Numbered from the stretch's first letter, positions 13,067-53,410 are shown. The stretch is 64,000 nt of DNA from a virus (IMGVR_UViG_2889931527_000001), one strand, 5' to 3'. Made by a program: numbers and translations. Notes: a model not told the origin generated them from the sequence alone.

Positions 13067-13236
13067 CAAATAGCGGCGTAAAACCCCTTCCTTCAGGTAT
13101 GGGGATATAAGCCGCCTCAATGTGGTAGGGCGGGACACGCCCAAACCTATACGCTCGGGGAGATCGTGTAAGACCTGCTTGCAGGCAATGGTCGCTGAAC
13201 TGAGAATCCCCTGCCTTTAGGCATGGGGAGTGTCAA
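13067..13236 (+). mobile_element. tnpB-less IS200/IS605 mini-element (left end + omegaRNA scaffold), copy 1
   Basis: After TCTAT; left-end hairpin CCCC..GGGG; 3' part closely similar to the RNA region after tnpB; ends TCAA. Confidence 0.9.
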
Positions 13237-13441
13237 TCATTCCAGACCAACAGTGAAGGAGCGATGAAGATTGAGTATCAAAGTCGGAACAAAAGTATCT
13301 GTCAAAGGAGAGTTTGGACGCATATCTGGCACTGTGATTGCTACTCCTGTCGGAAAAAATAAACGCATGGCAATCGTCAAAACAGATGCCGGATTTAACA
13401 CAACAATTCGAATCGATAATCGCGGAAATGTGGTGGATTGA

Positions 13442-15004
13442 ATGTTTGGAGTTCAGTTTTACCCTACCCCGTCGCAATTGGCAGCCCGAATGCTGGACAA
13501 GGTAGATTGGAGCAAGGTGCAGTTCGCACTTGAACCGTCTGCTGGTAAAGGCGATCTCGCAATGGGCATAAGAAATCGGATGAAGCAGGAAAAGAAGCCG
13601 TTTCAACTGGATTGCGTAGAGATCGACCCGGACTTGCGTGCGGTGCTGCGGGAGCGCGGTTTTGCGGTCGTGGAAAATGATTTCCTGAAATGGGACGCAC
13701 AAACGCGGTACGACGTGATTGTGATGAATCCACCGTTCCGGGATGGCGATAAGCACCTGATGCACGCGCTCGAACTGATGAAGCATGGCGGGCAAATCGT
13801 TTGCTTACTTAATGAATCAACGATTCGGAACGCAGAATCGCCGCTACGCAGGTCAATGGTAAAATTACTCGCCGAATATCAAACGACGATAGAGAGCGTC
13901 TCAGGGGCATTTATGGATGCCGAGCGAAAAACAGATGTTGATGTTGCTTTGGTGTATGTGGACATCCCGAAGGAAGCTGAAAAAGAAATCGGACTTGATG
14001 ATATGCGTGAAGCGGCAGACGTACCAGAGAGCGAAACAGAATGCAACGAATTGGTGGATGCTGACTTTTTCAAGGCCATTGTCCAGAGATACCAGATGGA
14101 AGCGCGCATTGGACTGAAAATGATTGATGGTTTCCAGCGCCTTAACCGGTTTGTCGGAGAAAGAGAAATCATAACAATGCACATAAATGGACCGGCGGAC
14201 GATATGTCAATGAGCATGCAGAACACCTATGTTCGAGAACTGAGAGCGCGGTATTGGAAAACCTTGTTTGAAGCAAAGGAAATGCAAAGCCTTATGACAC
14301 GCGAGGTTCGGGACGCATATCTTGCAAAGCTCAATACATTTCGTGGCCTTGATTTCACGATGGACAATATTCTGCAAGTCAAGATTGAGCTTTCCAAGAC
14401 TCTGATCGGAAATATCGAGGACGCGATTATCAGTATGTTCGATGATCTTACCTATGAGCACAGCATGGGAAAGAACAACAACATTCACTATTACAACGGA
14501 TGGAAAACGAACAAGGCGTGCCGCGTGAACAAGAAAGTGATTGTACCATTCTGGGGATTGTATGATGCTCGCTGGGGCGGCTCATGGAGTACATACAAAG
14601 CCCGTGATTACCTGCTTGAACTCGAAAAAATCCTTGGCTATCTGGACAATGGGCGTACAGATGGCGAGAACTGTGAAAGTGTAATCCGGGAAGCATTTGT
14701 ATCATCCTCCGAGAAATATGACGGTCGAAAACTGCATTGCAAGTTCTTTGATGTGGAGTTTAAGAAAAAAGGCACGGTACATATCTATTTTACGGATGAA
14801 CGCCTGCTCAAAAAGTTCAATCTATTCGCCGGTCGGAAAAAGAACTGGTTGCCTGATTCCTACGGGCAAAAAAGCTATGGTGAAATGTCTGCCGAAGAAC
14901 AGGAAATCGTTAAATCGTTCGAAGGAAAACAATCTTATGAGGACATAGTACAAGGTGCAGCATTTTATATCACAGCGCCAGAACTCTTGATGATTGGAGG
15001 ATGA
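13442..15004 (+). CDS. Amino-methyltransferase with DUF4942-like C-terminus
   Basis: FYPTP, LEPSAGKG, MNPPF motifs. Confidence 0.85.
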   Translation: MFGVQFYPTPSQLAARMLDKVDWSKVQFALEPSAGKGDLAMGIRNRMKQEKKPFQLDCVEIDPDLRAVLRERGFAVVENDFLKWDAQTRYDVIVMNPPFRDGDKHLMHALELMKHGGQIVCLLNESTIRNAESPLRRSMVKLLAEYQTTIESVSGAFMDAERKTDVDVALVYVDIPKEAEKEIGLDDMREAADVPESETECNELVDADFFKAIVQRYQMEARIGLKMIDGFQRLNRFVGEREIITMHINGPADDMSMSMQNTYVRELRARYWKTLFEAKEMQSLMTREVRDAYLAKLNTFRGLDFTMDNILQVKIELSKTLIGNIEDAIISMFDDLTYEHSMGKNNNIHYYNGWKTNKACRVNKKVIVPFWGLYDARWGGSWSTYKARDYLLELEKILGYLDNGRTDGENCESVIREAFVSSSEKYDGRKLHCKFFDVEFKKKGTVHIYFTDERLLKKFNLFAGRKKNWLPDSYGQKSYGEMSAEEQEIVKSFEGKQSYEDIVQGAAFYITAPELLMIGG

Positions 15005-15008
15005 TGCA

Positions 15009-15677
15009 ATGAAAGTGCTCGTTGCTTGTGAAGAATCACAGGCGGTTTGCAAGGCGTTTCGAGCGTTAGGGCACGAGGCGTATTCATGCGATATTCAGGA
15101 GTGTTCAGGCGGGCATCCAGAATGGCATATACAGGGAGATGTGCTGCCGATTCTAAACGGAAGATGTGAATTTAATACGATGGATGGCAAATGTCATAAA
15201 ATTATGGGACGGTGGGATATGATAATTGCTTTCGTTCCATGCACAAAGACGTCAAACGCAGGAGCAAGACATTTATACAAAGGCGGAGTCTTGAACATTC
15301 AGAGATATTATGAAGGGCTTTGCGGCAAGGCTCTTTTCATGGCGGTGTGGATGGCTGACTGCGAAAAAATCGTGATTGAAAACCCAACGCCGAGCAAAAT
15401 TTTCCAATATCCGAAACCGACACAGGCTGTTCAGCCGTACATGTTTGGGCACCCATATACTAAGAAGACTTTGCTTTGGGAAAAAGGAGTAAATCCGTTA
15501 GAACCAACTGACATTGTAGAGCCAGAAAGGACATGGTGCCCGTCTGGAAGTTATTCAAGAAATCACAACGAAAAACATCGTGGAATGTTTACAAAAGACC
15601 GAGCAAAAAACCGCTCTAAAACATTTCCGGGAATCGCCCGTGCTATGGCAGAACAATGGGGAGGTGACGTGCGTTGA
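15009..15677 (+). CDS. Phage C5-cytosine methyltransferase-like protein
   Basis: MKVLVACEES, PC motif, IENP, RSKTFPGIARAMAEQW. Confidence 0.75.
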   Translation: MKVLVACEESQAVCKAFRALGHEAYSCDIQECSGGHPEWHIQGDVLPILNGRCEFNTMDGKCHKIMGRWDMIIAFVPCTKTSNAGARHLYKGGVLNIQRYYEGLCGKALFMAVWMADCEKIVIENPTPSKIFQYPKPTQAVQPYMFGHPYTKKTLLWEKGVNPLEPTDIVEPERTWCPSGSYSRNHNEKHRGMFTKDRAKNRSKTFPGIARAMAEQWGGDVR

Positions 15678-15866
15678 CGCTGATTGAAGAACGCTGCGAA
15701 ATCAAATCGCCATGTGCATCGTGTACGAGAAAAGAACGGTGCAATGTGGGCATTGCGCAATCATGTCCAGCGTTTAAGGAATATGCAAGTACACATGTAT
15801 TGGACAGAAAAAAGGCTGCATACCGGCAGCATTTGAAATGGATGGAGAGGATGTGTGGATTTAAGC

Positions 15867-16301
15867 ATGAATAGTGAAGTTATGTTTTCAAGCAAAACCG
15901 ATATGTGGGAAACACCACAAGACTTTTTCGATGCGCTAGATCAGGAATTCCACTTCACGCTTGATGTATGCGCAACGCCAGAGAATGCGAAGTGCGAACG
16001 GTACTATACGCCGGATGATGATGGGCTGTCGCAACCATGGAATGGTGTTGTGTGGTGCAATCCTCCATATGGCAGGGAAATCGGAAGATGGGTGCTGGCT
16101 GGTTCGATTGCATCCGTGGCACAGAGAACGACGGTGGTAATGCTGCTTCCTGCCCGCACTGATACAAGATGGTTCCATGATTACATACTTGGGAAAGCAG
16201 AAATCCGTTTTATCCGTGGGCGATTGAAGTTTGGAGGAAGCAAAAACAGCGCACCTTTTCCGTCAATGGTAGTGATTTTTAGATGGAATGGTTGCGCATA
16301 A
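15867..16301 (+). CDS. Phage DNA N6-adenine methyltransferase
   Basis: WETPQDFF, WCNPPY, LLPARTDTRWF. Confidence 0.9.
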   Translation: MNSEVMFSSKTDMWETPQDFFDALDQEFHFTLDVCATPENAKCERYYTPDDDGLSQPWNGVVWCNPPYGREIGRWVLAGSIASVAQRTTVVMLLPARTDTRWFHDYILGKAEIRFIRGRLKFGGSKNSAPFPSMVVIFRWNGCA

Positions 16302-16322
16302 AATCCGGGGAGGTTTGGCACA

Positions 16323-16577
16323 GTGGACAAGCTCGACAAGGCCATTGAGCGCTTGAAATTGGCCGCGCAAATGAGCGAAACATATTACCAAAAACCGTTG
16401 ATCGTAACCACGAGCGGCGGGAAAGACAGTGATGTTTGCCTTGCGATTGCAAAAATCGCTGGTATCAATTGTGAGGTACAGCACAATCACACAACAGCAG
16501 ACGCGCCGGAAACCGTGTACCATATCCGCGAAACATTCCGCAAACTGGAATCCGATGGTGGCTGTGTTTCGGCCTAA
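16323..16577 (+). pseudogene. Truncated PAPS-reductase-family protein
   Basis: SGGKDS PP-loop but only 84 aa. Confidence 0.7.
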
Positions 16578-19368
16578 GATGGAGATGCTGGAGGGGATGG
16601 AATGACCTTATACGACATTTTGCGTGCTACAAGATACTGGCAGAGGTTCTGTTGTTACGTAACAAACGCCTATGACCAGAACGTCCCTATAGGATTTGGA
16701 ACACGCAGGGAACTCCTTGACGAGGAGCAGAACGATGAACTCTTTGATTACCTGATGTGCGATGTGGACAGCATCACGGTCGCAAAAGATAAATCGTTGT
16801 TAATCCGGGTGAGGGACGAACACTATAACAAACCGCTGGAAGAACAGTATGAATGCACAGGGGGATGGAAGGTATCAGACCCGAAAACCCGTCCCTTCAA
16901 GTTCAGCAACGAAATGGAGGATTGGGAATATCATGGCTAATCGTGGCGATGTAGTCAGTGTGGATAAGCTGTGGGATGTTTTCGAGCGGGAGCGTGAGAA
17001 AGCCTGGGAGGGTGTGGAAGCCCCCGTGGCTACGCCGGAATGGAACATAGCGGCAGGGAAGATTGATGTCATTAACAATATTTGCGAATCAGTGTACAAC
17101 ATGAACACATGTTCCCGCTCTGACGGGGAAAAAGCGGAAAAGCCCGTATGGAAAGAGGGAAAGAGCATTGTACACTCGGACTATGCAGACGGTACGGCAA
17201 GGACAGAAACACATCACTGGGGGGAATACTGTTGCCCGGCGTGTGGCTGGTTTGTGGGTAGAACGGTTGACGTTTTCGGCAGAAAGCACACACAGGAGAA
17301 GAAGAACTTTTGCGATAGGTGTGGGCAAAAAATCGACTGGGAGGGAATCAAGCGTGAATCGTGAGCTGTTATCCATCGAAGAACTAAACCTAAAGCCAGG
17401 TGAGTACGCAGTCTGCCTTGCAAGGCGAAACCCGTTCTCAGAGTGGTACCCAATGGTGATTAAGCGGGTGCGGAACGGATATGTATCTCCGGTGATGGAG
17501 CAGTATGTCACCGATATTTTTGGGGGATTCCGCATACCAGATTTAAAAAAAGCGAAGGAGGCTAAGCCATGAAGATGTGTAAATGCGAACGCTGCGGGAA
17601 AACGTGGGAATATTCGCCGCTTCAGAATGTGTCATTTCCGGTTGTATACTTGGGGATTGGTATCGAAGCTGATTTGTGCTCAGAATGCCGGAAAGATCTG
17701 CTAAAATGGCTAAATGGCAACGAAAAAACAGGAGAAAAATTCAAACAGGAATTAAGGGAATGGAGGCTTAGCCATGAGCATGACGAGGGATGAAGCAATT
17801 AAGCACCTGCTGCACGATTGGCACATAAATCTTGGATGTGATTTTGCAATAAAGCCGGGCAGGCTGGATGGTTTTTTGGATGCTTTGGATGTTGCCCTCT
17901 CCGCCCTCCGCCACCAGATATGGGAAGAGAAACTATGGCACGACGCTAAGACAGACCCACCCAAGACGCCGGGGCTGTACTATGGGAAAAAGAACGATAC
18001 CAACTCTATGTATCCCTGTTTGTACCGGGACGGCATATGGGTACTGGATGCGTACCCACAGACAAAAATGGACATTGTTAAATGGGCGGATTATACGGCG
18101 TTTGTAAAGGAGGACGATTGAGCATGACGAAGGAAGAAATTATAAAAAAATATGAGATGGTGGTTGAAGGAGGAGAGCTTGTTGCTCCTTTTATGGGTGA
18201 GGACGAAAAGGAAGTTTACGAGATGTTAAAAGCCGGACTTTCCGCCCTCCGCCCAATCACCAGGGAGCAGGTGGCAGAGGTGTGGAAGCCATGCAAAGTT
18301 TGCAATGGAAAAACAACGTTATATCAACACACAAATACCACAAAACTGTTTATGAACACATTTGGAAAAGCAACAACGCTTGTTACTGAGTGCAATGGTT
18401 GTCCGCCATATGCAGATTGTTGCATGAAAGGTATTTCGATGAATTCGGCATTTAGAATCAGCTATTGTCCAGAGTGTGGCCGACCACTTACAGACGAGGC
18501 CGTGGAAACCATTATGAAAAGAATGGAGGAAATGCGGAATGATTAGCCGGGAGCAGGTGGAGAAGGAGTGGAGGGGTGAGTGGATAGGCATACCAAACAT
18601 GGGGGTATACGACATTGCGTGTTCAAAGTGCGGGTATTCCACAGGAATTAGATTTTGGAGTTCTGATTTTTGCCCCAACTGCGGATCTCCCCTTACAGAC
18701 AAGGCCGTGGACATGGTGATGGAGAGATTGGAGGAAATGAAGAATGGATGATAAGTACCCGTTGCTGTTAGGCGTGGTTTTAATCATGAGAGGAAAAGCG
18801 TAAGCTATTAGAACTCATGAATTCAAGTTTGATTCACGCCTTTTCGCCCGATGATTATTACGCTGTTATGGGAGTGTTCAGCAGGATTGTAAACAGATTG
18901 GAGGAATAAGCATGTATGGGAGTTTCATTGATGACTGGAAAACACCAGATGAATACATAAGCCGAAAAGCCGTGATGGAAATGCTTGAAAATGCACAAAT
19001 CATTTCAGACGGAGAAAATTGCGGATATTGCACAGAGGATATTTCAATTAGTTCCATTCCAGCCGCCGAAGTTGCGCCGGTGGTGCATGCAAAATGGAAA
19101 TCTGTATATGGTACACATCGTCCAAGGGTTGCATGTACGAACTGCAAGTACGACGTAAAATCGCAACTCAAATATTATAAGCGTTGCCCGAACTGCGGCG
19201 CAAAAATGGATGGAGGTACACCGTGAGCGAAAATATAGCAAAAGCAATTACAAGCGTGGCGTTATGCGCATGTGCGGCTTATACAGCAGCATGCGAGTAC
19301 GGAGAGATTATGTGCATTTTTGCATTAGCTTTGGTTTGTGCAATTTGGATTGATTAAGGAGGAAAACC

Positions 19369-19888
19369 ATGAAATTCAGAAACCCGAAAACCGGAAAAGT
19401 TTATGACGTGAAATGCAATAACTGCAATGAATCTGGGTTTTGCGCAGATATAGAGTGCAAAAATTGCCCGATAGAAACAAAAACAACAAGATTGTGCTCT
19501 GATTGGGTAAATGCAAATCCGCACGAAGCCGCCCGCCTGATGGGCTATGAAGTCATCGAGGACGAAGAACAGAAAACAGACAAGGACAAGCCCACTCGAG
19601 CATCCATCCTTGACGAAGCGAAGCGCTGTGTGTGCGGCCAGCGCGAACAGGACTATGGAAAAGCGGAGGACAATTTCAGTCTGATCGCCAGCCTGTGGGA
19701 ACCATACATCCGTACACGGTGCGTGAGTGATGGCGCAGATGTATGCATCATGCCGGAGGACGTTGCTATGCTCATGGCGTTGCTCAAAATCGCTCGGATT
19801 TGCAGCGGTACAGGGACACAGGACAGTTTTGTAGATTTGGCCGGGTTATGCTGCATGCGGCGGCGAGATTGCAGGAGGTAAGGCATGA
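19369..19888 (+). pseudogene. DUF6378-like protein with a 1-nt frameshift near the C-terminus
   Basis: REQDYG..DNF..IA.LW..KIAR..DLAG; the expected YAACGGE follows in another frame after GCCGGGTTAT. Confidence 0.65.
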
Positions 19889-22800: not shown

Positions 22801-24124
22801 GGATAGGGCAACATCAGAGGACTTGAATAGATTCCAACAAGTATATATGCATAACGGGAACGAAATCTACGTAGATACAGAAACAAATGTAATGTATTTC
22901 AAAAGATACGATGGGATGTCTATTATGACAGATGCAGATGGGAAACCTTTGATTTGGGAGGGTAATTAACATGGAATACAAAGAGCTGCTGAAAGATCAG
23001 GATTTTTCTTCCCCTCAAAAAATCGCTGATTGGATGCACAACGCGAAGGCAGCAATCGAAGAACTGCTTGCACGCGCCGAAGCAGCAGAAGCCAGAGCGG
23101 AAAAGGCTGAGAAGGAGCTTGACAGTTTTTTGGCAGAAAGTGAAAGAGTGATGTTTTACCCGTTTGGACGTAAGGAGGAATAAGCGTGGAGAAAACATAT
23201 AAACAATATTTGGAAGAAATCTTGTGCAGCCCGGTTTCCGATCAACTGACCGGGAGCCAAAGGAAAGCAATCGACGCAATGGCTGAACTTCTCGGATTCT
23301 GCGATTACGAAAAACTGTGTGAGCTGGCGAAAGCCGATAAGGAAAATCGGTGCGTGATTCACAAATTTGGTATTGGTTCTATCGCGTATGGAATATATCT
23401 CAGAATGTCTAAAAACAAGGAAATTAAGGCATATATTGTTAAACGTCGTTTAGATTCCTTACAAGAATGCTTAGCTGCTGAACGTGATGCATATTCCTAT
23501 TCTTCTCGCGAAGAAGCTGAAAAAGCAGCAAAAACTGAATTGGAAAAGATGAGGGCGTAACAGTGGAGCGCTTAACATATTTTGAAAACGGAAAATGGTA
23601 CATCAGAATTGGAGATACAGAGTTCAGCGGGAAATGGGTAAACAAACTAGCCGACAAAGAGAATCGGCTTATGCAGTATGAACGAATCGGAACCCCTTCG
23701 GAGATCAACCGTGTAATGGATGCCTATGGGCGCGGCATGACGCTAAGAACCGAAGTTGGTAAGAGACTTTCTTTGATGCGGGAAATTCCAACAAAACGAC
23801 TCCATGAGATAGCCGATGCCGAAAAAGATGGCCGTTGCATTATACTGCCATGTAAGGTCGGTGACAAAATGCAGTATATGGACGACGCAGATTCAATGGG
23901 GGTCGAAATCGTCGAGAAAATTGTTGTAGAGATCGAAACTGACAGCGGCATCTATTCTGTGGATGAATTGGGGCCAGAAGATTTCAAGTCACCACAACTA
24001 CCTGACCACGAAGGTAAAGAATCCGTTGAATGCGCTGACCAGATAAAAGAATTATCTCCAAGAGCCCAAAAGATATACTCCGATCTTGTGACCGGGAAAG
24101 CACTATATTGGGAAGGAGAACAAG

Positions 24125-24403
24125 ATGGCTGACCATGAATGCATCATTGGACTATATCAGTATGACGATTATGCAGATTTGATTACGTTGTCTGGTTTGA
24201 AACAGGAAATTGACGAACGGAAACGGATGAACGTTTTTTGAAAAAAAGAAAATACACATTATTCTAGTTACTTCATAGTCACAGAATACACGTTCGATCA
24301 GTATGCGGATCGCAGATTCAATACTGGACTATCGCATTTTAATTATTGTCCTGTTTGCGGGAAGAAGATTGACTGGAAGGAGTTGCGAGAAACAAATGGA
24401 TGA
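24125..24403 (+). pseudogene. Zn-ribbon gene with an in-frame TGA at 24239
   Basis: GTT TTT TGA AAA AAA GAA; the frame continues to FNYCPVCGKKIDW. Confidence 0.6.
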
Positions 24404-26620
24404 ATATATTAGCCGAAAAGCGGTAGAAGAAATGATTGAAGATGCACAAATCATTTCAGACGGAGAAAATTGCGGATATTGTACAGAGGATATTGAGATT
24501 AGCTCAATTCCAGCCGTCAATGTTATTCCTGTCAAACGCGCACATTGGATTATTTCGGAAACTGATTACGGTTTCTGCGAATCAATCGGAAAGAACTACA
24601 AAGAAAGGAAATATAAATGTTCGGCGTGCGGATACGAAACAGGGACGCAGGCAGAGAAGTTTATTTGCTGCCCGATTTGTACAGCAATGATGGAGGAATA
24701 AATAAAAATGAGTAAATCGCTTGAATTTTGTAAAGAAAGAGCGAAGAACAAAGAGATATCCTGCTTGTTTGACAGAAATTGGGACGATGCAGGAGAGGTA
24801 GAGTCGCTTGCTCTGTTTGAAAGAATCCTTGAAGGAAACAGGAAATATAAAATCAAGGGTGAAGAAGATGGAGAAGCGAGGGAGTTTACCATTTCTTTGA
24901 TCTTTGACCCTGATGCAGATTTTGATTATTTTACCAGTTCGCGCAGCATACATGATGGAACGATGGTATTCGTGTTTGAAAACATGGAGAATTGCGCGAA
25001 AAGAGTGATTTTAGCTGAAACCTATTACACAAAGAAGGGAAAGCCCCAACCCGGAGATACCATTCAATACACCATTGGAAACTTCGTGGTGCTTAACGAG
25101 TTTGACGAGAACAGGGATTTGTTTGCTCCGAAAGATAAACCTTATCTTCAAGAGAGAACAACAGTGTTGCTTCCGTTGAGATATGATTTGATTAATGGTG
25201 AATGATATGAAAAACGATGTTGAAAAGAAAGAGTACATTGAGAGATCGGAAGTAGAGAACGCGATTCGTGCGCTATACCCGTCTATGTCAACACCAGATG
25301 GTTCAGGTGAAAACGACGATTTGATTTTGGCAGCACAGGAAATGTGTGCCGATGCAATCAAGGCAGTGCGTGATGTTCCAACTGCCGACGTTGAGCCAGT
25401 GGTGCATGCAAAATGGAAATCTGTATATGGTACACATCGTCCAAGGGTTGCATGTACGAACTGCAAGTACGACGTAAAATCGCAACTCAAATATTATAAG
25501 CGTTGCCCGAACTGTGGCGCAAAGATGGATGGAGGTAAATAACCATGAAGTTCAGAGACCCGAAAACCGGTGAAGTGTTTGACGATATTATGAAAGCAAA
25601 AGACAGATATTGCAGATGTAAATACTGCAAAGATGATGGAGAAATTTCGAAAGAACGATTATGTAAACTACCAAACAAGACAACTGGGTATTCATACAGT
25701 TGCAGAGCGTTCTGTGTTGAACACCCAGCAGAAGCCGCACGCCTGATGGGCTATGAAGTAATCGAGGACAAGCAGAAGGAAGAAGGCGATAAGCCTAGAA
25801 TTTGTGAAATCCTTGGCGTTGATGTAGGCGAAAAATTTTGGTATCCAGGAGAAGCGGGACCATTAGTTGTAACGAAAGAGGGGTATGTTATGATCGCGGA
25901 AGAACAATATCAAATCAGAGATGAAATTGGAATATTTACAAACACTGAAAAGCTTACAAAGCACCCTGAAAAGATTATTCGGAAACCTAAATTGACTCCA
26001 TCAGAAGTGGAGGATATCAAAGTATTAAAGCGTCTGTTTGATGTAAAATTTGATAAAATCCTGTGCTTGTTTGCATGCAATGAAAGAATTATATTCCTGC
26101 AAGATAACGAATGCACTAAGATAAAGCTGAACAAAGACGCATTCCCTTCACTTGCACCCGGTCAATCAGTGCGTTTAGTGTAATTCGCTGCAATCAAGAG
26201 AATAATGCACATAAAATAAACTCACATAAATAATGTAGGATTTTGAGAAAATTCGTAAGTAGGTAGGAAAGGGTACGTGAAGCCGCGCAAAATCAAAAAG
26301 CGCTTCAAATACATACTATATTAAAAGGAGTTAAAACAAATGAAGGAAACTACTTACGAACACGAAGCAGGCAGAGAGTATTTCGCCATCACAGCAGCCG
26401 AAAGATGGAGTATCAGTATGATTAAGAAACTCCACGAAAAGCACCCAGAAGAAGTGGAGATCACCCAAAACAAGGACGGCTCCATCTATGCCAAAGTGCC
26501 GCTGTCCTGGATGCGGATTCACCCCAAACGCACTCGCACCATGACGGACGAAGAACGCGCAGCGGCAGCAGAACGGCTCCGCAAAGGAAGAGAACAAAAG
26601 AAACTGAACCAGTAAAACAA

Positions 26621-28914: not shown

Positions 28915-28921
28915 ATGTGCA

Positions 28922-37991: not shown

Positions 37992-38191
37992 AATAATACC
38001 TCTTTCAAACCCTAATTTCCTTGTAATGATTTACATGTATTTGATATACCTCCAATATCATATTTTTATTTTACCATATCAAGAATCTATTTCCAATACA
38101 AATACAAAGAAATATTTTCTAAAAACACCTTGACTTTTTGTGCTCCAACAATTATACTGTATTTAGAGAGTGCAGAAAGTAGGTGATTAAA

Positions 38192-38365
38192 ATGAGCCCT
38201 CGCACAGGGCGTCCAAAAGCAGAAAATCCATTAAATGTAAATTTAAAGGTGCGTTTTGACCAAGAAACCAATAATCGATTGTTGGATTATTGCGAAAAGC
38301 ATGGGGTTACACGCACAGAAGCGATTCGTCGTGGGATACATTTGCTTTTGGAACAAGAAAAATAA
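38192..38365 (+). CDS. CopG/RHH small regulator
   Basis: MSPRTGRPK...TRTEAIRRGI. Confidence 0.8.
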   Translation: MSPRTGRPKAENPLNVNLKVRFDQETNNRLLDYCEKHGVTRTEAIRRGIHLLLEQEK

Positions 38366-38425
38366 GGTGTCGGCTCCCTGACAAAGAATACGACACCTTA
38401 GAACACCAATCCCGAAGGGATGGTA
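38360..38425 (-). ncRNA. Putative antisense sRNA
   Basis: Minus-strand TTGTAA / TG-TATAAT promoter; terminator AGGTGTCG..CGACACCT-TATTTTT. Confidence 0.55.
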
Positions 38426-38479
38426 AATCTATTATACCATATCCTTCGGGGTTTACAAGACACCAGGAGGAAAAGCAAA

Positions 38480-38740
38480 ATGAAAAACAGACCCTTTCCA
38501 GAGATCATAAACGCGCACCATGCGGATGCACTAAGCCGAATGGAAGAAGATGCAGAACTGAATGCGTTGTACGAAGCGGAATGGTCGTTGCCGTGCGAAG
38601 ATGTTCGCAGCATGCTAGATAGCGGCGACGTGAACGCGGCTTCTGATTTCATCGCAATGCACCAAGTCAAGACCGAGCGCATGGGATTCCTGCTGGGCTA
38701 CCGCTACGCCATGCAGCTTGCACGGGAAATCTTTGTATAA
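38480..38740 (+). CDS. Hypothetical protein (identical to 50535-50795)
   Basis: Duplicated ORF. Confidence 0.7.
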   Translation: MKNRPFPEIINAHHADALSRMEEDAELNALYEAEWSLPCEDVRSMLDSGDVNAASDFIAMHQVKTERMGFLLGYRYAMQLAREIFV

Positions 38741-38760
38741 TTCACACAAAGAATATACCC

Positions 38761-38870
38761 TTGACTTCGGCTGAAAAATCGCATATACTATGACCACACA
38801 AACGGCGCACTTCCGCGCCACTCATACAGTCAAACTGTATTGGTGGTCGGGGTGCGCCGTTTTTCGTTTT
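38761..38870 (+). promoter_or_regulatory. Promoter (TTGACT-17-TATACT) plus attenuator leader
   Basis: ACGGCGCAC...GTGCGCCGT-TTTT stem. Confidence 0.7.
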
Positions 38871-38890
38871 CTCAGAAAGGAGCATGCTAT

Positions 38891-39646
38891 ATGAATGAAT
38901 TGCAAATTTTCCAGAATGCAGAGTTTGGAACGATTCGAACAATCGAGGAAAACGGCAAAGTGCTGTTCTGCGGGTCGGATGTGGCTAAGGCATTGGGATA
39001 TAAGAATCCTACAAAAGCCATTGCAGACCACTGCAAAGGAACTGTGGAGAGACGGGCTAACGATTCGTTAGGTCGTCAGCAGAATATGAAATTTATCACC
39101 GAAGGCGATATTTACCGCTTGGGGGCAAAGTCTGAGTTACCGGGTGCAGATAAGTTTGAATGCTGGATTTTTGATGAAGTCCTCCCCTCTATCCGCAAGC
39201 ATGGCGCATACATGACACCTGAAACACTGGAAGCTGCAATCATGAATCCTGATACACTTATCAAGATTGCAACTGCGCTCAAGGATGAACAAGAGAAGCG
39301 CAAGGCATTGGAAATCGCCAATTCCGAACTAACTGTTGACAACCAGATCATGAAACCCAAAGCGGACTATTTCGATGAAATCGTAGATAGGAACCTACTT
39401 ACCAATTTCCGCGAAACGGCAAAGCAACTTAATGTGCCGCCGAGAAAGTTTGTAAGCTTCCTGATCGAAAAGAAATATGCCTATCGAGATAAGAAAGGTA
39501 AGCTCCAACCGTACCAGCAGTATGTGGAAAGCGGCCTGTTCTGCCTGAAAGAGTGCTTGAATGAAAAGACCGGATGGGGAGGAACACAAACACTCATTAC
39601 GCCGAAGGGACGTGAAACGTTTCGGCTGCTGTTTATTGCTGCGTAA
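38891..39646 (+). CDS. Antirepressor (BRO-N + KilAC)
   Basis: LFCGSDVAKALGY, EVLPSIRKHG, TPKGRETF. Confidence 0.92.
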   Translation: MNELQIFQNAEFGTIRTIEENGKVLFCGSDVAKALGYKNPTKAIADHCKGTVERRANDSLGRQQNMKFITEGDIYRLGAKSELPGADKFECWIFDEVLPSIRKHGAYMTPETLEAAIMNPDTLIKIATALKDEQEKRKALEIANSELTVDNQIMKPKADYFDEIVDRNLLTNFRETAKQLNVPPRKFVSFLIEKKYAYRDKKGKLQPYQQYVESGLFCLKECLNEKTGWGGTQTLITPKGRETFRLLFIAA

Positions 39647-39713
39647 CCTATCATAGAATTTTAGCATTGAATATAGCCACTCAATATGCATTTTCTATGA
39701 AAGGAGCACAGAA

Positions 39714-40021
39714 ATGAATCAAACGTCTACGTTGCAAATTTTGAAGTCCGAAACATTTGGAACAGTAAAATGTGATTTCTATGGCGACGGAAATCAAGTA
39801 TACATGACCCGAGAGCAAATCGGAACTGCTTTAGGATATTCCAACCCCAAACGCGCCATTTCAGATATTCACAAGAGACACAAGGAAAGACTGGACAAGT
39901 TCTCAAGGGTAACGCAGATTGCGTACCCCTCCGGTGGAAAACAAGATGTGTATATCTACAACAGAAAAGGCGTTATGGAAATCTGCCGATGGAGTCAACA
40001 GGAAAAAGCTGATGCTTTTAT
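39714..40021 (+). pseudogene. BRO-N gene interrupted by a mini-IS
   Basis: MTREQIGTALGY...EICRWSQQEKADAF then the element. Confidence 0.75.
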
Positions 40022-40190
40022 CGAAGGCGGCGTAATACCCCTTGCTTCAGCTATGGGGATATAAGCCGCCTCAATGTGGTAGGGCGGGACACGCCCAAAC
40101 CTATACGCTCGGGGAGATCGTGTAAGACCTGCTTGCAGGCAATGGTCGCTGAACTGAGAATCCCCTGCCTTTAGGCATGGGGAGTGTCAA
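40022..40190 (+). mobile_element. tnpB-less IS200/IS605 mini-element, copy 2 (chimeric)
   Basis: After TTTAT; left end matches the full element, body matches copy 1; ends TCAA. Confidence 0.9.
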
Positions 40191-40247
40191 GTGTGGCTAA
40201 GGAAGCGCAAGAACAGTGAAATGAGTATTGAGAAAGAGGGTTTTATT

Positions 40248-41171
40248 ATGCCTACAATTCAAGATTTCGAAAAAGGGATTCAAAAATATTTTCGGTCGTG
40301 CGCTTTTTTAGCTGATTCATCCGTAACCCAACGTCGTCTTGTATGTGATAAACTGATCGAATATATGAGCGACAGAAAGAATGAGCAAATCACCGTCGAA
40401 ACATTGATTGACTTCCGCAACAGCATGGATGAATTTAAGCCCAGCACGATAAACAAATATATGCGTATCCTAAAATCTATCTTCGCTTGGATGCTTGATA
40501 TGGGTATATGGTATGGAGGAAATCCGGTGAGAAAGAACATGGAAGTTCCTCAGCATCAGCACGAAATCAAGAATGTTCTGAACGATAACGATATGATGCG
40601 AATTGTCAGGAGACGCGAAGATGCAGAAAAGAGTATTGTATACTTACGTAGACGTGCTATTACTCTGCTGCTTGTCACATCTGCCATGCGCGAATCTGAG
40701 TTGATCGAATTGCGTCCCATTGATTTAAACTGGGATAAAGGCACAATATATATTGCTAATGGTAAAGGCGGAAAAGATCGTACTGTGCTATTTTATAGTG
40801 TTGCGCAGGAAGCCGTAAAGGAATATATGAAGTTTCGTCCCGAATCTGCCACAGACCAAGATGCAGTATTCTTGGCAAATGATTGGAGAGGTGCACATAA
40901 GTTGGACCGGCGCAGCATCATTACGGATGTAAAAGAATACATTCGAAGCACAACAGGACGGACGGATATTTCTCCCCACTCGCTTCGTCATACTGCTGCT
41001 AGATATATGTTATCGAATGGTGTTCCAATGGCAGAGATTCAAGCACTGCTTGGACATTCTACAAGTGCAATCACAGAACATTATGCGAAGCTTCTCGCGC
41101 CCGATGTCACTCCGATCAATTCAGCATCAACAGCGTTTGACAAAGTATATCCCCACGGAACATCTGTTTGA
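40248..41171 (+). CDS. XerC/D-like tyrosine recombinase
   Basis: MRESE, GKGGKDR, PHSLRH, LGH, Y; no arm-binding domain. Confidence 0.92.
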   Translation: MPTIQDFEKGIQKYFRSCAFLADSSVTQRRLVCDKLIEYMSDRKNEQITVETLIDFRNSMDEFKPSTINKYMRILKSIFAWMLDMGIWYGGNPVRKNMEVPQHQHEIKNVLNDNDMMRIVRRREDAEKSIVYLRRRAITLLLVTSAMRESELIELRPIDLNWDKGTIYIANGKGGKDRTVLFYSVAQEAVKEYMKFRPESATDQDAVFLANDWRGAHKLDRRSIITDVKEYIRSTTGRTDISPHSLRHTAARYMLSNGVPMAEIQALLGHSTSAITEHYAKLLAPDVTPINSASTAFDKVYPHGTSV

Positions 41172-41190: not shown

Positions 41191-41195
41191 GTGCG

Positions 41196-42248: not shown

Positions 42249-42271
42249 GTATAATTCATCCCTTTCTGTTC

Positions 42272-42568: not shown

Positions 42569-42582
42569 GTTGTGGTATCCCT

Positions 42583-44076: not shown

Positions 44077-44082
44077 TCTTCA

Positions 44083-44640
44083 TCACCCGTTCAAAATCTT
44101 ATCGCGTTCTGCCAAGGTAATGTCCCCTTTTTGAACAGCTATATCAACCAATGATTTTGTCCAAAGTCCACGAGTATAATTCTTCTGAACTCTTATCGCA
44201 GCGCTGGAAAGTTCTGTTTCAGCGGAAATAGTTTCCGAAGTCATAGTCATTGCCATAACTTGAGGCGTAGCTTCTGAGGCCGGCAATGCCATCATTACTT
44301 GCGCTTCCAATGCTGCGGCAATACGTTCTTCGTTAGTAGGTTCATTAGCAAAAGGAGGATTATCCTCAAAATCACTGATTGCCTGTAAATAGTCATCGTC
44401 AGATTGACATTGGCTGAAATCGCATCCGATCCGCTTGTAATGCTCAACAGTTGCATTGAATTCCATCGCAACAGAACCATTGATAACGCTATTTGAAATT
44501 ATCATTTTGGCATCTGGATTCTGCGCCCATGCATATCGTTCAAGCCATTCTTCCGCAGTAAAATGATTTTTACCTGTATCCTTATCCCGCCCCGGTGTGT
44601 AAATGTCAGATTTTTTATCCCAAAGTTTGTACTTATTCAT
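44083..44640 (-). CDS. Tail-fibre-associated protein (XkdX-like C-terminus)
   Basis: NYTRGLW..AVQKGDIT. Confidence 0.55.
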   Translation of the reverse strand: MNKYKLWDKKSDIYTPGRDKDTGKNHFTAEEWLERYAWAQNPDAKMIISNSVINGSVAMEFNATVEHYKRIGCDFSQCQSDDDYLQAISDFEDNPPFANEPTNEERIAAALEAQVMMALPASEATPQVMAMTMTSETISAETELSSAAIRVQKNYTRGLWTKSLVDIAVQKGDITLAERDKILNG

Positions 44641-44661
44641 AGCGTCCTCCTTTTGTTATAT

Positions 44662-46656: not shown

Positions 46657-46671
46657 ATATTTTTCCTCCTT

Positions 46672-49074: not shown

Positions 49075-49092
49075 ATCACCGCCTTTCTATAA

Positions 49093-49170
49093 TAAAAAAA
49101 GGCCGCAACCTGCCCAATGCAGATTACAGCCCCAATCGACTTTCTTCTATCCCCAACCGGAAAGAAACTG
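49093..49170 (-). promoter_or_regulatory. Late-module terminator/antiterminator element, copy 3
   Basis: Same architecture as 56971-57050 and 63711-63795. Confidence 0.55.
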
Positions 49171-49242
49171 AAAAGGCGCAGAACTCACCAAAGCATACCT
49201 AGACTTGTATTCTGGTACGTTTTGGCGCGTTCCGCGCCGCAT
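49171..49242 (-). promoter_or_regulatory. Attenuator leader paralogous to 36772-36845
   Basis: CGGCGCGGAACGCGCCAAA...GTTCTGCGCC-TTTT. Confidence 0.6.
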
Positions 49243-49297
49243 CAATCATATTATTTTATATTATTATATCACACATAAACGGAAAATGCAAGAGCAA

Positions 49298-50077
49298 TTA
49301 TGAAGGAGGGCCAAATGATACGGTCAAACCACCGCCGATCTCTACCTCACCGCCGGTCATTAACTTAGCATTGCGATATACCGCGATATGTCCGGTCTGT
49401 GAAGTATCGCCAAATATCTCATTCACGACGCTTCTACCATCTGGCTTTCGTACAAAGCAGTTGCCGCTTCCGGACACCAATGTGATATTATACACGCCAG
49501 GTGCAATATCTTTACCAATCTCGTAAACTCCCGCTGAAAATTCATAGCTTTGTGTTGAATCTTCTAACCCCGAACCGTTTGTTCCTTCGGTTGGGTCAAC
49601 GACAGGCCCATTGTAATCAATGTGTCCAAAATCTGATGATATTTTCAAAAAATCCGTATTCCCCGATTCATCTGTTTGTACATCAGAATCATCCGATTCT
49701 TGGCTACTAACCGCAGGTTCATCCATGCTTGCGGCGTTCTTGTTTGAAAGAAAGTCTTTTAATTTTAATGCGCCAAAAGCACCACCGCCAATAATCGCAA
49801 GAGCCAATATGGTGACTATGATTTTTTTCATAATGGATTTTTTCTTCTTTTTCACGCGCTTCTTATCGGGCTGGATACTTTCGGATTCTTTTGTACGTTG
49901 TTGGGCAACTATTCGCTGCATGGCATCACGATTTAACGCCGGGTCTGCCTGATAAATGTTTTCTGGAAATTCTACGCGAGTTCCGCATTTCGGGCATGTT
50001 CCAGCCCCGCCAAATTCGCACCGCAGTTTTTGTCCGCATTTCGGGCAGGCTACAACCACTTTATCTCTGTTTTCCAT
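49298..50077 (-). CDS. Membrane-anchored moron protein (Zn ribbon + TM + extracellular domain)
   Basis: CPKCG x2, TM helix, AGVYEIGKDIAPGVY. Confidence 0.75.
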   Translation of the reverse strand: MENRDKVVVACPKCGQKLRCEFGGAGTCPKCGTRVEFPENIYQADPALNRDAMQRIVAQQRTKESESIQPDKKRVKKKKKSIMKKIIVTILALAIIGGGAFGALKLKDFLSNKNAASMDEPAVSSQESDDSDVQTDESGNTDFLKISSDFGHIDYNGPVVDPTEGTNGSGLEDSTQSYEFSAGVYEIGKDIAPGVYNITLVSGSGNCFVRKPDGRSVVNEIFGDTSQTGHIAVYRNAKLMTGGEVEIGGGLTVSFGPPS

Positions 50078-50235
50078 AGCTATCCTCCCTTTTAATCAAT
50101 CTCTATACCCTACTTTTATTTTACCATATCAAGAATCCATTTCCAATACAAATGCAAAGAAATATTTTTGGGAAAACGCCTTGACTTTTCAGGATATCCG
50201 ATATATAATTTGGATATCCAGAAAGGAGGTGCAAG

Positions 50236-50418
50236 ATGTCACCAAATATTGGGCGACCGAAATCAAATAATCCAAGAGATTTGCAGTATCGTTTGCGCTT
50301 AACCGAAGATGAAGTTAATAAACTGAATTTTTGTTGTAGGGTATTAGGTCTTACAAAAGCAGAAGTGTTGCGGAACGGATTGGAAATTATGTTTGAAAAA
50401 GCCCAAAGTTCCAAATAA
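50236..50418 (+). CDS. CopG/RHH small regulator
   Basis: MSPNIGRPK...TKAEVLRNGL; GGATATCC repeats in its promoter. Confidence 0.8.
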   Translation: MSPNIGRPKSNNPRDLQYRLRLTEDEVNKLNFCCRVLGLTKAEVLRNGLEIMFEKAQSSK

Positions 50419-50485
50419 ATTAGGCGTTCGTTGCCGTGACAAAGCTTGACGAACGCCTAGTGTATCAATCCTAAAGAGGATGATA
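50415..50485 (-). ncRNA. Putative antisense sRNA
   Basis: TTGATT-17-TAGAAT; terminator-like TAGGCGTTCGT..ACGAACGCCTA. Confidence 0.55.
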
Positions 50486-50534
50486 AATCCATTCTATCAT
50501 CCTCCTTGGGGAAAATCAAGGAGGAAAAGCAAAA

Positions 50535-50795
50535 ATGAAAAACAGACCCTTTCCAGAGATCATAAACGCGCACCATGCGGATGCACTAAGCCGAATGGAA
50601 GAAGATGCAGAACTGAATGCGTTGTACGAAGCGGAATGGTCGTTGCCGTGCGAAGATGTTCGCAGCATGCTAGATAGCGGCGACGTGAACGCGGCTTCTG
50701 ATTTCATCGCAATGCACCAAGTCAAGACCGAGCGCATGGGATTCCTGCTGGGCTACCGCTACGCCATGCAGTTGGCACGGGAAATCTTTGTGTAA
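50535..50795 (+). CDS. Hypothetical protein (duplicate of 38480-38740)
   Basis: Identical protein. Confidence 0.7.
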   Translation: MKNRPFPEIINAHHADALSRMEEDAELNALYEAEWSLPCEDVRSMLDSGDVNAASDFIAMHQVKTERMGFLLGYRYAMQLAREIFV

Positions 50796-50944
50796 TTCAC
50801 ACAAAGAATACACCCTTGACTTCGGCTGAAAAATCGCATATACTATGACCACACAAACGGCGCACTTCCGCGCCACTCATACAGTCAATCTGTATTAGTG
50901 GTCGGGGTGCGCCGTTTTTCGTTTTCTCAGAAAGGAGCAATAAC

Positions 50945-51697
50945 ATGAATGAATTGCAAATTTTCCAGAATGCAGAGTTTGGAACGATTCGAACAATCGA
51001 GGAAAACGGCAAAGTGCTTTTCTGTGGGTCGGATGTGGCTAAGGCATTGGGATATAAGAATCCCAGTAAAGCACTTTCAGACCATTGTAAGGGTATAACG
51101 AAACGTTATACCCCCACTAAGAGCGGGACGCAAGAAATGAATTTCATTCCAGAAGGCGATATTTACCGCTTGGCGGCAAAGTCTGAGTTACCTGGCGCAG
51201 ATAAGTTTGAAAGCTGGATTTTTGATGAAGTTCTCCCATCCATTCGCAAGCATGGAGCATACATGACACCGGAAACACTCGAAGCCGCAATCATGAATCC
51301 AGACACCCTTATCAAGATTGCAACCGCGCTCAAGGATGAACAAGAGAAGCGCAAGGCATTGGAAATCGCCAATTCCGCACTAACTGTGGACAACCAGATT
51401 ATGAAACCCAAAGCGGACTATTTCGATGAAATCGTAGATAGGAACCTGCTTACAAATTTCCGCGAAACGGCAAAGCAACTTAATGTGCCGCCGAGAAAGT
51501 TTGTAAGCTTCCTGATCGAAAAGAAATATGCCTATCGAGATAAGAAAGGTAAGCTCCAACCCTACCAGCAGTATGTAGAAAGCGGACTATTCAGCCTGAA
51601 AGAGTGTTTGAATGAAAAGACCGGATGGGGAGGAACACAAACACTCATTACGCCGAAGGGACGTGAAACGTTTCGGCTGCTGTTTATTGCTGCGTAA
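50945..51697 (+). CDS. Antirepressor (BRO-N + KilAC)
   Basis: Paralog of 38891-39646 with a different central BRO segment. Confidence 0.92.
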   Translation: MNELQIFQNAEFGTIRTIEENGKVLFCGSDVAKALGYKNPSKALSDHCKGITKRYTPTKSGTQEMNFIPEGDIYRLAAKSELPGADKFESWIFDEVLPSIRKHGAYMTPETLEAAIMNPDTLIKIATALKDEQEKRKALEIANSALTVDNQIMKPKADYFDEIVDRNLLTNFRETAKQLNVPPRKFVSFLIEKKYAYRDKKGKLQPYQQYVESGLFSLKECLNEKTGWGGTQTLITPKGRETFRLLFIAA

Positions 51698-51764
51698 CCT
51701 ATCATAGAATTTTAGCATTGAATATAGCTACTCAATATGCATTTTCTATGAAAGGAGCACAGAA

Positions 51765-52072
51765 ATGAATCAAACGTCTACGTTGCAAATTTTGAAGTCC
51801 GAAACATTTGGAACAGTAAAATGTGATTTCTATGGCGACGGAAATCAAGTATACATGACCCGAGAGCAAATCGGAACTGCTTTAGGATATTCCAACCCCA
51901 AACGCGCCATTTCAGATATTCACAAGAGACACAAGGAAAGACTGGACAAGTTCTCAAGGGTAACGCAGATTGCGTACCCCTCCGGTGGAAAACAAGATGT
52001 GTATATCTACAACAGAAAAGGCGTTATGGAAATCTGCCGATGGAGTCAACAGGAAAAAGCTGATGCTTTTAT
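51765..52072 (+). pseudogene. BRO-N gene interrupted by the tnpB element
   Basis: Same sequence as 39714-40021. Confidence 0.75.
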
Positions 52073-53394
52073 CGAAGGCGGCGTAATACCCCTTGCTTCA
52101 GCTATGGGGATATAAGCCGTATATTAAGAATTGCGATCATAAGGAGGTGAATCACTATGGAATATTCGTATCGGTTTCGAATCTATCCGACAAAGGAGCA
52201 AGAAGCACAGATTGCTAAGACGCTTGGTTGCTGCAGATATGTTTACAATCACTATCTTGCCATGAGAACACAAATCCACAAGGACAAAAAAGAATCTATG
52301 AACTACAATGCTTGTTCTAAAGATATGACAGAACTCAAAAAATCTTTGGATTGGCTGAAAGAAGTGGATTCTACGGCTTTACAATCTGCATTGAAGTTTT
52401 TGGATACGGCGTATCAGAACTTCTTTCGCCGCTTGAAGACGGGCGAAAAACCTGGATATCCCAGATTCAAAAGAAAACACGACCCCAGACAAAGTTATAC
52501 CAGCAAATGTGTGGGCAAGAGCATTCAGGTTCTTGAACATGCGGTGAAGCTGCCAAAGTTAGGTAAAGTCAAATGCTGCATTTCCAAGCAGGTGCAGGGA
52601 CGGATTTTGTCTGCCACTGTAAGTCGAAACCCAAGTGGTAAGTATTTTGTTTCTTTATGCTGTACGGATGTATCCATAGATGCTTTGCCTTCAAAAGGTA
52701 AGTCTGTCGGAATTGATCTCGGCATAAAAGCTTTTGCCGTTTCTTCTGATGGTTTCACATATCAGAACCATAAGCATCTTACCAGCAACCAGAAGAAGCT
52801 TGCCAAGCTCCAACGTCAGTTGTCCAGAAAAACAAAGGGCAGTAAACGCAGGGATAAGGCAAAACAAAAGGTTGCACAGCTGCACGAACGGATTGCAGAC
52901 CAAAGAAAGGACATGCTACACAAGCTATCCACAAAGCTAATTCGTGAAAATGATATCATTTGCATGGAAGATTTGGCTGTCAAGAATATGGTCAAGAATC
53001 ATAAACTAGCAAAATCTATTGCAGATGCTTCGTGGGGCGAGTTTCGCAGACAGCTAACCTATAAGGCAGAATGGTATGGTCGGAAGCTGGTCGTCATAGA
53101 CCGATTCTATCCTTCCAGTCAGATGTGTTCTGCTTGTGGTACATTGTGGTCTGGCACAAAGGATTTGGCTGTTCGAAAATGGACGTGTCCAGATTGCGGC
53201 ACGGTACATGATAGGGATGTCAATGCAGCGAAGAATATCCTTGCAGAAGGACTTCGCATGTTGGCATAAATTTTGCATGGTAGGGCGGGACACGCCCAAA
53301 CCCATACGCTCAGGGAGACTATGTAAGACCTCGCAGGTGCAGGCAACGGTCGCTGAACTGAGAATCCCCTGCCTTTAGGCATGGGGAGTGTCAA
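52073..53394 (+). mobile_element. IS200/IS605-family (IS1341-type, tnpB only) element
   Basis: TTTAT target motif, left- and right-end subterminal hairpins, TCAA end, no tnpA. Confidence 0.92.
52157..53269 (+). CDS. tnpB: RNA-guided endonuclease TnpB
   Basis: HTH_OrfB N-terminus; RuvC D (GIDLG), E (MEDL), D (HDRD) intact; CxxC..CPDC Zn finger. Confidence 0.97.
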
Positions 53395-53410
53395 TGTCCA
53401 GATTGCAGAT
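53275..53410 (+). ncRNA. TnpB omegaRNA (reRNA) scaffold plus flank-derived guide
   Basis: Conserved structured right end shared by all three elements; 5' boundary uncertain. Confidence 0.75.

Follow-up and report, generated by a model that had tools for sequence, protein, structure and literature searches.

Elements of the prophage and their lineage

The stretch of DNA analysed here, referred to as the window, comprises 64,000 nt of the virus IMGVR_UViG_2889931527_000001 (G000:C4:487101-551100) and is prophage DNA. It contains three copies of a transposable element of the IS200/IS605 family, namely, a full element whose only gene is tnpB, encoding a predicted RNA-guided nuclease, and two mini-elements, mini1 (170 bp) and mini2 (169 bp), in neither of which sequence reading and alignment found an open reading frame (ORF). 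Each copy has a left end (LE) and a right end (RE). The RE would encode the scaffold of an omegaRNA, the adjacent 3' flank would supply its guide, and a target-adjacent motif (TAM) precedes the LE. The gene-less copies resemble palindrome-associated transposable elements (PATEs). The features are as follows.

12893..13081, + strand: truncated RusA-like resolvase gene; the first 58 codons are kept, after which the gene reads into the LE
13062..13066, + strand: TCTAT, pentamer resembling a TAM, now bordering mini1 on the left; a secondary junction, not the original target motif
13067..13236, + strand: mini1, PATE-like; LE foot and hairpin 13067-13114, 8-nt linker, RE with omegaRNA scaffold core 13123-13236, TCAA end
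13237..13256, + strand: guide 1, 3' flank of mini1; the same sequence follows TTTAT in an element-free relative (L106)
38055..40068, + strand: first copy of a 2-kb direct repeat, with an Ant gene, a truncated Bro-N gene (39714-40064), TTTAT (40017-40021), and LE
40022..40190, + strand: mini2, a hybrid copy with the LE of the full element and the linker and RE of mini1
40191..40210, + strand: guide 2, just 5' of the tyrosine integrase ORF 40191-41171; no TAM-flanked target found in IMG/VR, in 163 family genomes, or in the own genome
50105..52119, + strand: second copy of the 2-kb direct repeat, with Ant (50945-51697), truncated Bro-N (51765-52115), TTTAT (52068-52072), and LE (52073-52119)
52073..53394, + strand: tnpB-only IS605-family element; LE, tnpB (52157-53269), RE with omegaRNA scaffold (53278-53394)
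53395..53414, + strand: guide 3, inside a 256-bp segment (53395-53650) absent from related phages, which break at about 53651

Both mini-elements consist of an LE foot and hairpin, the 8-nt linker, and an RE finishing with ...GGGGAGTGTCAA; the RE following tnpB is of the same type and finishes at 53394. A repeat search gave 98% identity between mini1 and mini2 over 164 nt. Within the RE, the mini-elements agree with each other at 100% in a 54-nt block and at 98% in a 58-nt block; the corresponding values against the tnpB copy are 91% and 98%. A 42-nt LE block of mini1 shows 93% identity to both other copies in the window. The alignment also revealed the same LE-RE junction in mini1 and mini2, GCCG joined to CCTCAATG (in fuller form, ...GATATAAGCCG joined to CCTCAATGTGGTAGGG), and hence the two descend from a single deletion derivative rather than from two independent decays. 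The 3' flanks of mini1, mini2, and the full element are TCATTCCAGACCAACA, GTGTGGCTAAGGAAGC, and TGTCCAGATTGCAGAT, respectively, and the pentamers on the 5' side are TCTAT, TTTAT, and TTTAT. All three copies lie on the plus strand behind plus-strand phage genes. An earlier reading of this DNA from its sequence alone (the sequence-only reading) had given these coordinates, TCAA ends, three different flanks, and upstream motifs, all of which sequence reading and alignment confirmed; the anatomy it proposed (LE hairpin, RE scaffold, guide from the 3' flank, TAM close to TTTAT) and the co-orientation with phage transcription are likewise supported.

A search of the whole genome yielded four RE and four LE matches. 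The fourth copy (C8:33621-35350) is autonomous, carrying both tnpA and tnpB, and holds the sole Y1_Tnp gene of the genome (136 aa, 152 bits (151.8)), situated between the LE and tnpB. TTTAT precedes its LE, which is 94-98% identical to that of mini1; its RE shows 86% identity, and its tnpB product is 66% identical to TnpB of the window. The similarity of the elements is not accidental, given 98% identity over 164-170 nt and the presence of this additional copy elsewhere in the genome. A further tnpB, on C6, is distant (34% identity). A gene for a ParA-like ATPase (L007 2211-2972) adjoins the autonomous copy on the 83-kb C8, which may be a plasmid or another mobile element.

The features that characterize the IS605 group were found in this set. 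A Y1 (HUH) TnpA is tied to the ends through the C8 copy, which lies outside the window; the window copies are non-autonomous. Subterminal imperfect hairpins are present, CCCCTT(C/G)C-TTCA-G(G/C)TATGGGG in the LE and CCCCTGCC-TTTA-GGCATGGGG in the RE, with compensatory changes in both, including a C-G to G-C change in the mini2 LE hairpin relative to mini1 and C8. The repeat search found no terminal inverted repeats (0 inverted pairs). Insertion takes place 3' of a specific short motif, TTTAT, without target-site duplication. As in PATEs, LE and RE without any ORF occur in more than one context, namely, in two copies with different flanks. The four genomic copies constitute one IS200/IS605-family lineage, comprising an autonomous, a tnpB-only, and two PATE-like members.

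Beyond this genome, RE or LE sequences are present in 14 of the 164 genomes of the family (G000 counted), and further mini-elements similar to those of the window were found in G054 (two copies) and G008. Contigs with an LE-RE mini-element in other flanks also occur in sequencing run X1. A contig of run X18 fuses the LE hairpin (52116) to the RE terminal hairpin (53361), omitting 1244 nt; this one contig, with a side of 34 nt, suggests an even smaller mini-element lacking most of the scaffold in some organism.

The sequence-only reading had taken the three copies for a dispersed multi-guide system. The autonomous copy, with its near-identical ends, makes the elements look mobile rather than fixed, and turns the set into an ordinary mobile IS605 family with PATE derivatives, as opposed to a dedicated system.

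A natural target of guide 1 and rearranged insertion sites

When the initial 22 nt of the mini1 right flank were used to scan metagenome contigs, a single contig stretch (L106) was returned, which is about 99% identical to the window on both flanks of mini1 and lacks the element. In its place, L106 carries 370 bp that are absent from the window, between ...CATGATCTAT and the right flank. The last five of these are TTTAT, directly 5' of TCATTCCAGACC..., and the segment encodes a small ORF and the C-terminal half of the RusA-like resolvase, which is intact in L106 (122 aa; PHROG 1682, E 1.6e-30). Since L106 has TTTAT followed by guide 1 without the element, mini1 was originally inserted at this site. 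A perfect match to the TAM plus guide 1, extending over more than 20 nt, thus exists in nature in an element-free relative. The sequence-only reading had expected the guides to match element-free related phages next to T(T/C)TAT; this holds for guide 1, with TTTAT, and for guides 2 and 3 the searches described below found no target.

The pentamer TCTAT now at the left of mini1, which had been taken for its insertion motif, is present as written. By comparison with L106, it is a secondary junction that arose together with the 370-bp deletion, the true target being TTTAT. The left end of the lost segment falls exactly 3' of this TAM-like pentamer, a position that a random endpoint would take with a probability of about 0.2% (an estimate based on 2 pentamers of 1024). 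We infer that TnpA chemistry at a second site lies behind the deletion, and the simplest route to the scar would be that a second copy inserted nearby, at TCTAT, and then recombined with the first. A blastn search of INPHARED with 12300-14200 gave only two short LE-like matches at contig ends and no related phage, and exact matches to a 16-mer of guide 1 in IMG/VR (12 loci) include none with TTTAT or TCTAT on the 5' side.

The TTTAT occupied by mini2 is the same as that of the full element, and the Bro-N genes that contain it, both truncated to 116 codons, are identical; each lies at the end of one copy of the 2-kb direct repeat. The repeat copies are 88% identical overall and mosaic, with blocks down to 46-67%; their last ~500 bp, including the LE, are 100% identical. 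Intact Bro-N relatives are 266-268 aa long, and over the insertion site their sequence is ...CRWSQQ.(G/K)A(D/N)AFMDWVWE.... A contig of run X13 agrees with the window as far as the final T of TTTAT (52072), and its next 30 letters encode, in frame, ...F M D W A W E V I D N...; it represents the empty Bro-N allele. Its sequence matches neither guide 2 nor guide 3, and therefore the left flank of mini2 and of the full element was originally paired with right flanks other than the present ones.

Mini2 itself is a hybrid that shares an identical LE with the full element and an identical linker and RE with mini1. Downstream of the full element, related phages lack the 256 bp that follow the RE; in runs X13 and X17, contigs join the window at about 53651 and have other sequence before this point. 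The minus-strand structural ORF 53570-54340 (256 aa) has 57 viral relatives with 38-64% identity, which match only from residue 1 to residues 226-238. Its last ~20-26 codons (53570-53650) are absent from these 57 relatives and from the X13 and X17 contigs. The module carrying the tnpB element has replaced the native 3' end of the ORF. The rearrangements at mini2 and at the full element would be accounted for if copies of the element had recombined with each other, as at mini1. A rearrangement is found next to every one of the three copies in the window.

TnpB and the conserved RE scaffold

TnpB of the window (370 aa) has the Pfam domains HTH_OrfB_IS605, OrfB_IS605, and Cas12f1-like_TNB, and its residues 5-366 align to TnpB of ISDra2 (8bf8, 8h1j) with E of about 5e-102. 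Residues D187, E271, and D354 align with ISDra2 D191, E278, and D361, which the ISDra2 report names as the catalytic center (PMC10097598). The RuvC triad is thus intact, as the sequence-only reading had stated, and all four zinc-finger cysteines (C324, C327, C344, C347; CCCC) are present. The protein therefore combines the RuvC D/E/D residues and the zinc-finger TNB domain of OMEGA nucleases.

TTTAT is found directly 5' of the LE in the C8 copy, at both Bro-N sites, in G008 and G060, and in one mini-element of G054; one G012 copy differs. At the other end, BLAST of the RE core against loci from relatives showed that 23 of 25 distinct RE hits reach a GT(G/C)TCAA-type end and then pass into unrelated sequence. 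TTTAT is the insertion motif, and no target duplication accompanies insertion.

The consensus structure of 20 full REs, calculated with RNAalifold, contains 28 pairs in 6 helices. Paired cells amount to 95.0%, compared with 88.6% in shuffled alignments, and 12 pairs show compensatory changes on both sides, compared with 5.9 in the shuffles; none of 500 shuffles reached either value. As a control, sliding the 3' partners by 1-3 columns left a pairing of only 29-48%. A conserved structured scaffold, as expected of an OMEGA system, thus borders the flank directly on its 5' side. A part of the structure signal may come from the terminal hairpin, which TnpA could just as well use in the form of DNA. 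The helices in the 5' part of the RE and the long-range helix ACGCUC/GAGUGU are more simply explained as RNA.

The conserved RE core spans 114 nt in the mini-elements and 117 nt after tnpB, where it begins 9 nt past the stop codon. According to the ISDra2 study, only nucleotides -116 to -1 of the omegaRNA scaffold are seen in the structure, and the region 5' of them is not needed for cleavage (PMC10097598). The core retained in the mini-elements is therefore close in size to the functional ISDra2 scaffold (114 and 116 nt). The mini-elements of G054 and G008 have other LE-RE linkers than those of the window genome and thus represent separate lineages, and in all three lineages the core is kept from GGTA(G/C)GGCGGG to TCAA. 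Work on IS608 indicates that TnpA requires only the terminal hairpin. Retention of the full core fits selection for the RNA and not merely for the TnpA hairpin.

Guides, targets, and the proposed function

In our view, at a probability of roughly 80%, the copies form one IS605 lineage whose PATEs stem from a single deletion event and later moved or recombined, and the elements act by guide-directed retention and homing, with the mini-elements using TnpB in trans. The Y1 transposase of the C8 copy would mobilize all copies as single-stranded DNA. Phage read-through RNA across each RE would be trimmed to an omegaRNA, the last ~16-20 nt of which are the 3' flank. TnpB of the window copy, of the C8 copy, or of both would load these omegaRNAs, in trans in the case of the mini-elements, and the loaded complex would cut DNA bearing TTTAT and the flank, i.e., the element-free allele. 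Recombination with an element-bearing copy would then restore or spread the element. For a prophage, the complex would act on excised sister copies and on superinfecting relatives without the element, L106 being an example, and any exclusion of element-free phages would come as a by-product of selfish homing rather than as the work of a dedicated immune system. Selfish retention and homing, the role ascribed to TnpB in PMC10055086, is the most likely function. The same paper states that PATEs often encode omegaRNAs and that TnpB from other elements must then act in trans (Meers et al. 2023 preprint, PMC10055086). The proposal of the sequence-only reading that the mini-elements must borrow TnpB in trans is supported as a prediction.

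Several observations weigh against this interpretation. No Rfam family matches the RE, either for the whole window at gathering thresholds or for 52900-53500 at E up to 5. No sigma-70-like promoter was predicted inside or just 5' of either mini-element, and promoter and terminator scans near the elements gave nothing above shuffle expectation, so that expression would depend on read-through. Compared with the mini-element RE, the RE of the tnpB copy in the window shows 9% divergence and the C8 one 14%, which makes cross-loading of the mini-element RNAs by TnpB an assumption. Among the contigs of the gut metatranscriptome X1 are a tnpB with 97% identity, REs followed by other flanks (one of them the flank of a G054 copy), and an LE-RE mini-element in other flanks. 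These contigs place related elements, not the mini-elements of the window, in an RNA library, and may reflect DNA carry-over. The greater word depth of the RE than of the tnpB body in X1 was not used as evidence of expression, as depth in contigs is unsuited to ranking the parts of a gene and the flanks are different ones; parts of the window without cover in X1, X17, and X18 were not counted as absent.

The target searches weigh in the same direction. Exact 16-mers of guides 2 and 3 occur at 11 and 40 loci in IMG/VR, respectively, none of them a TAM-flanked homologous target; none of the guide-2 loci has TTTAT or TCTAT on the 5' side, and at no locus of any of the three guides does homology to the window flank extend further (of the 44 following bases, no more than 16 are identical). 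Exact 20- and 21-mers taken deeper in the right flanks of mini2 and of the full element gave 0 IMG/VR matches each. The right flanks of the three copies have homologs in 0 of the 163 other family genomes each (3 candidates scored per genome), which counts here for guides 2 and 3; no relatives of the integrase protein (40191-41171) were found among the genome contigs, and the 57 relatives of ORF 53570-54340 are too diverged to inform on guide 3. In the own genome, no site preceded by TTTAT or TCTAT matches any guide with up to 4 mismatches except the elements' own flanks, which are preceded by TCAA; consequently, there is no self-targeting, and guides 2 and 3 have no TAM-flanked target there either. 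Together with the empty Bro-N allele, which matches neither of these guides, the searches indicate that no cleavable target may exist for at least two of the three guides.

Two partial matches of guide 3 were considered and set aside. An environmental viral contig in IMG/VR (L048, 601-621, minus strand) contains an exact match to TTTAT plus 16 nt of guide 3 in an unrelated ORF. Both it and the window read F-I-V-Q-I-A-D-R in frame, and the similarity ends with the 16 nt; in view of the unrelated gene, the lack of wider homology, and a rough expectation of 0.03-0.15, it was read as chance. The first 12 nt of guide 3 also recur in tnpB itself (53186-53197), in the CPDC codons of the zinc finger. 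A nested or self-targeting arrangement was rejected, as GGACG and not a TAM stands on the 5' side and collinear similarity ends at 12 nt.

Positions 2-16 of guide 1 resemble conserved signalling-domain codons of methyl-accepting chemotaxis genes, with 1-3 mismatches per 16 nt (G000:C6:420418(-), C6:202823(-), C6:259806(-), and C7:43737(-)). This would be of interest if the mini1 RNA directed TnpB to this receptor motif in the manner of the TldR regulators, with 15 of 16 positions of guide 1 matched; the first two of these sites indeed have 1 mismatch and the third 2. We regard such regulation of host genes as extremely improbable. The sites have ATATT or ACATT instead of TTTAT, the mismatch affects the TAM-proximal position 1, and the residues of TnpB mark it as catalytically intact, unlike TldR. 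Furthermore, guide 1 is native phage sequence, occurring in the element-free L106 as well, and thus was not selected for this match; the resemblance is probably due to chance.

Alternatively, the mini-elements might be inert or purely TnpA-dependent DNA parasites that produce no stable omegaRNA or none that either TnpB loads, the guides having no function and the window copies being decaying remnants shaped by recombination. The missing promoters, the 9-14% divergence of the mini-element RE from the two tnpB-linked REs, the rearrangement of all three sites with the hybrid nature of mini2, and the two guides without a found target all agree with this possibility. Against it stand the 100% and 98% identity of the mini1 and mini2 RE blocks, which points to recent activity, the retention of the full 114-nt covarying scaffold in independent mini-element lineages, the position of both mini-elements within plus-strand operons, where transcription through them is expected, and the description of PATE omegaRNAs as common in PMC10055086. 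On balance, we consider inert mini-elements unlikely.

A domesticated defence, in which the three RE-flank RNAs and TnpB destroy element-free related phages to the benefit of the lysogen or prophage, in a CRISPR-like manner without an array, as the sequence-only reading envisaged, appears very unlikely. It can draw on the TTTAT-flanked target of guide 1 in the nearly identical L106, on the intact RuvC triad, on the co-orientation of all copies with neighboring phage genes, and on the whole scaffold kept in all mini-element lineages where TnpA would need the terminal hairpin only. On the other hand, besides the mobility implied by the autonomous copy, each guide is merely the flank of a landing site, as in any IS605 element; guides 2 and 3 lack a detectable target, and the empty Bro-N allele offers none; phage genes were damaged by the insertions (the RusA-like and Bro-N genes are truncated); and there is no sign that the arrangement is conserved, with flank homologs in 0 of the 163 other family genomes. 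Nor is there a mechanism of adaptation: adaptive immunity of the CRISPR type involves a repeat-spacer array and spacer acquisition, and here there is no array and the guides are insertion flanks.

The genes around the elements are those of a prophage. An integrase gene occupies 1-1134 on the minus strand, and genes for an anti-repressor, a repressor, RecE/RecT-like proteins, SSB, a DnaD-like loader, and a G39P-like loader lie 5' of mini1, with DNA methyltransferase genes 3' of it. Further 3' are Ant and Bro-N genes, mini2, the second integrase gene (40191-41171), and minus-strand tail genes, which are followed by the second Ant/Bro-N block, the tnpB element, minus-strand head and portal genes, and a transposase gene (62207-63553). 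Among other repeats of the window, a 27-bp tandem repeat of ~28 units (6149-7177) is situated inside ORF 5800-7245 (PHROG 4433, of unknown function). A 49-nt hairpin-containing repeat with 98% identity (56972-57020 and 63718-63766, 6.7 kb apart) flanks the portal/terminase-side genes and the transposase gene 62207-63553, and paralogous short blocks with 80-96% identity (18948-19218 and 24399-25537) lie inside two small PHROG 22543 genes.

The closest characterized relative is ISDra2 of Deinococcus radiodurans, which shares with the window element the TnpB alignment over residues 5-366, the catalytic D/E/D and CCCC zinc finger, an omegaRNA encoded at the RE with its guide from the 3' flank, a five-base TAM 5' of the LE, and a scaffold of similar length (116 nt functional in ISDra2, a 114-117-nt RE core here). 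The ISDra2 TAM is TTGAT instead of TTTAT, and the window copy has no tnpA. In addition, ISDra2 TnpB has 408 aa, and its C-terminal tail is absent from the 370-aa protein of the window. As a result, the scaffold of the window element is located wholly downstream of the stop codon, whereas that of ISDra2 overlaps the gene.

The PATEs of Geobacillus stearothermophilus, as presented by Meers et al. (2023, PMC10055086), similarly are gene-less LE-RE elements found beside tnpB-only and tnpA-bearing relatives. In contrast, the mini-elements described here reside in a prophage, one guide matches an element-free relative, and a neighboring deletion or recombination goes with each copy. TldR proteins are reported to be prophage-encoded, nuclease-dead TnpB-like repressors with a guide RNA; they resemble the window protein in being prophage-borne relatives of TnpB and differ in lacking the nuclease residues and in targeting host flagellin promoters, whereas the window protein has the intact RuvC triad and transposon ends.

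The predicted outcome of a mixed infection is the same as for the free-standing homing endonucleases of T-even phages (SegF, SegB, and Mob), which cause marker exclusion. In this phenomenon, the genome of the phage lacking the element is cut and then repaired with the element-bearing genome as template, and either the flanks are co-converted or the competitor is lost (PMC13565253). Recognition is protein-based in those phages and predicted to be RNA-guided here, where the nuclease is moreover encoded away from two of the three guides.

The kind of element is known, and the idea that PATEs supply guides in trans has been published. A limited search of the open-access literature found no described action of a TnpB or PATE guide between phages. 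What is new is a concrete natural donor and target pair for a PATE guide in phage DNA, and evidence that all copies of this prophage are associated with a deletion next to them or with inter-copy recombination.

A bolder possibility, which we judge to be quite unlikely, is that a prophage TnpB together with dispersed gene-less omegaRNA mini-elements constitutes an RNA-guided gene drive or exclusion system directed against the prophage's own element-free relatives. If this were true, an L106-type phage entering the lysogen or co-infecting would be cut at TTTAT plus guide 1 by TnpB carrying the mini1 RNA in trans, and the cut genome would be lost or converted to the resident allele, including the mini-element and the 370-bp deletion. 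Such a system would represent the first example in nature of marker exclusion between phages that is RNA-guided and has its nuclease and guides at separate loci. If the mini-elements are loaded in trans, the locus would be a natural test bed for a question raised in the TnpB field, namely, whether transposon guide RNAs bias inheritance between competing viral genomes in the way of the protein homing endonucleases of T-even phages. The window and L106 supply an exact natural target, TTTAT plus guide 1, within flanks of ~99% identity. Otherwise, this is an ordinary IS605/PATE family, and its lesson would be that prophage genomes are reshaped by deletions adjacent to such elements and by recombination between their copies.

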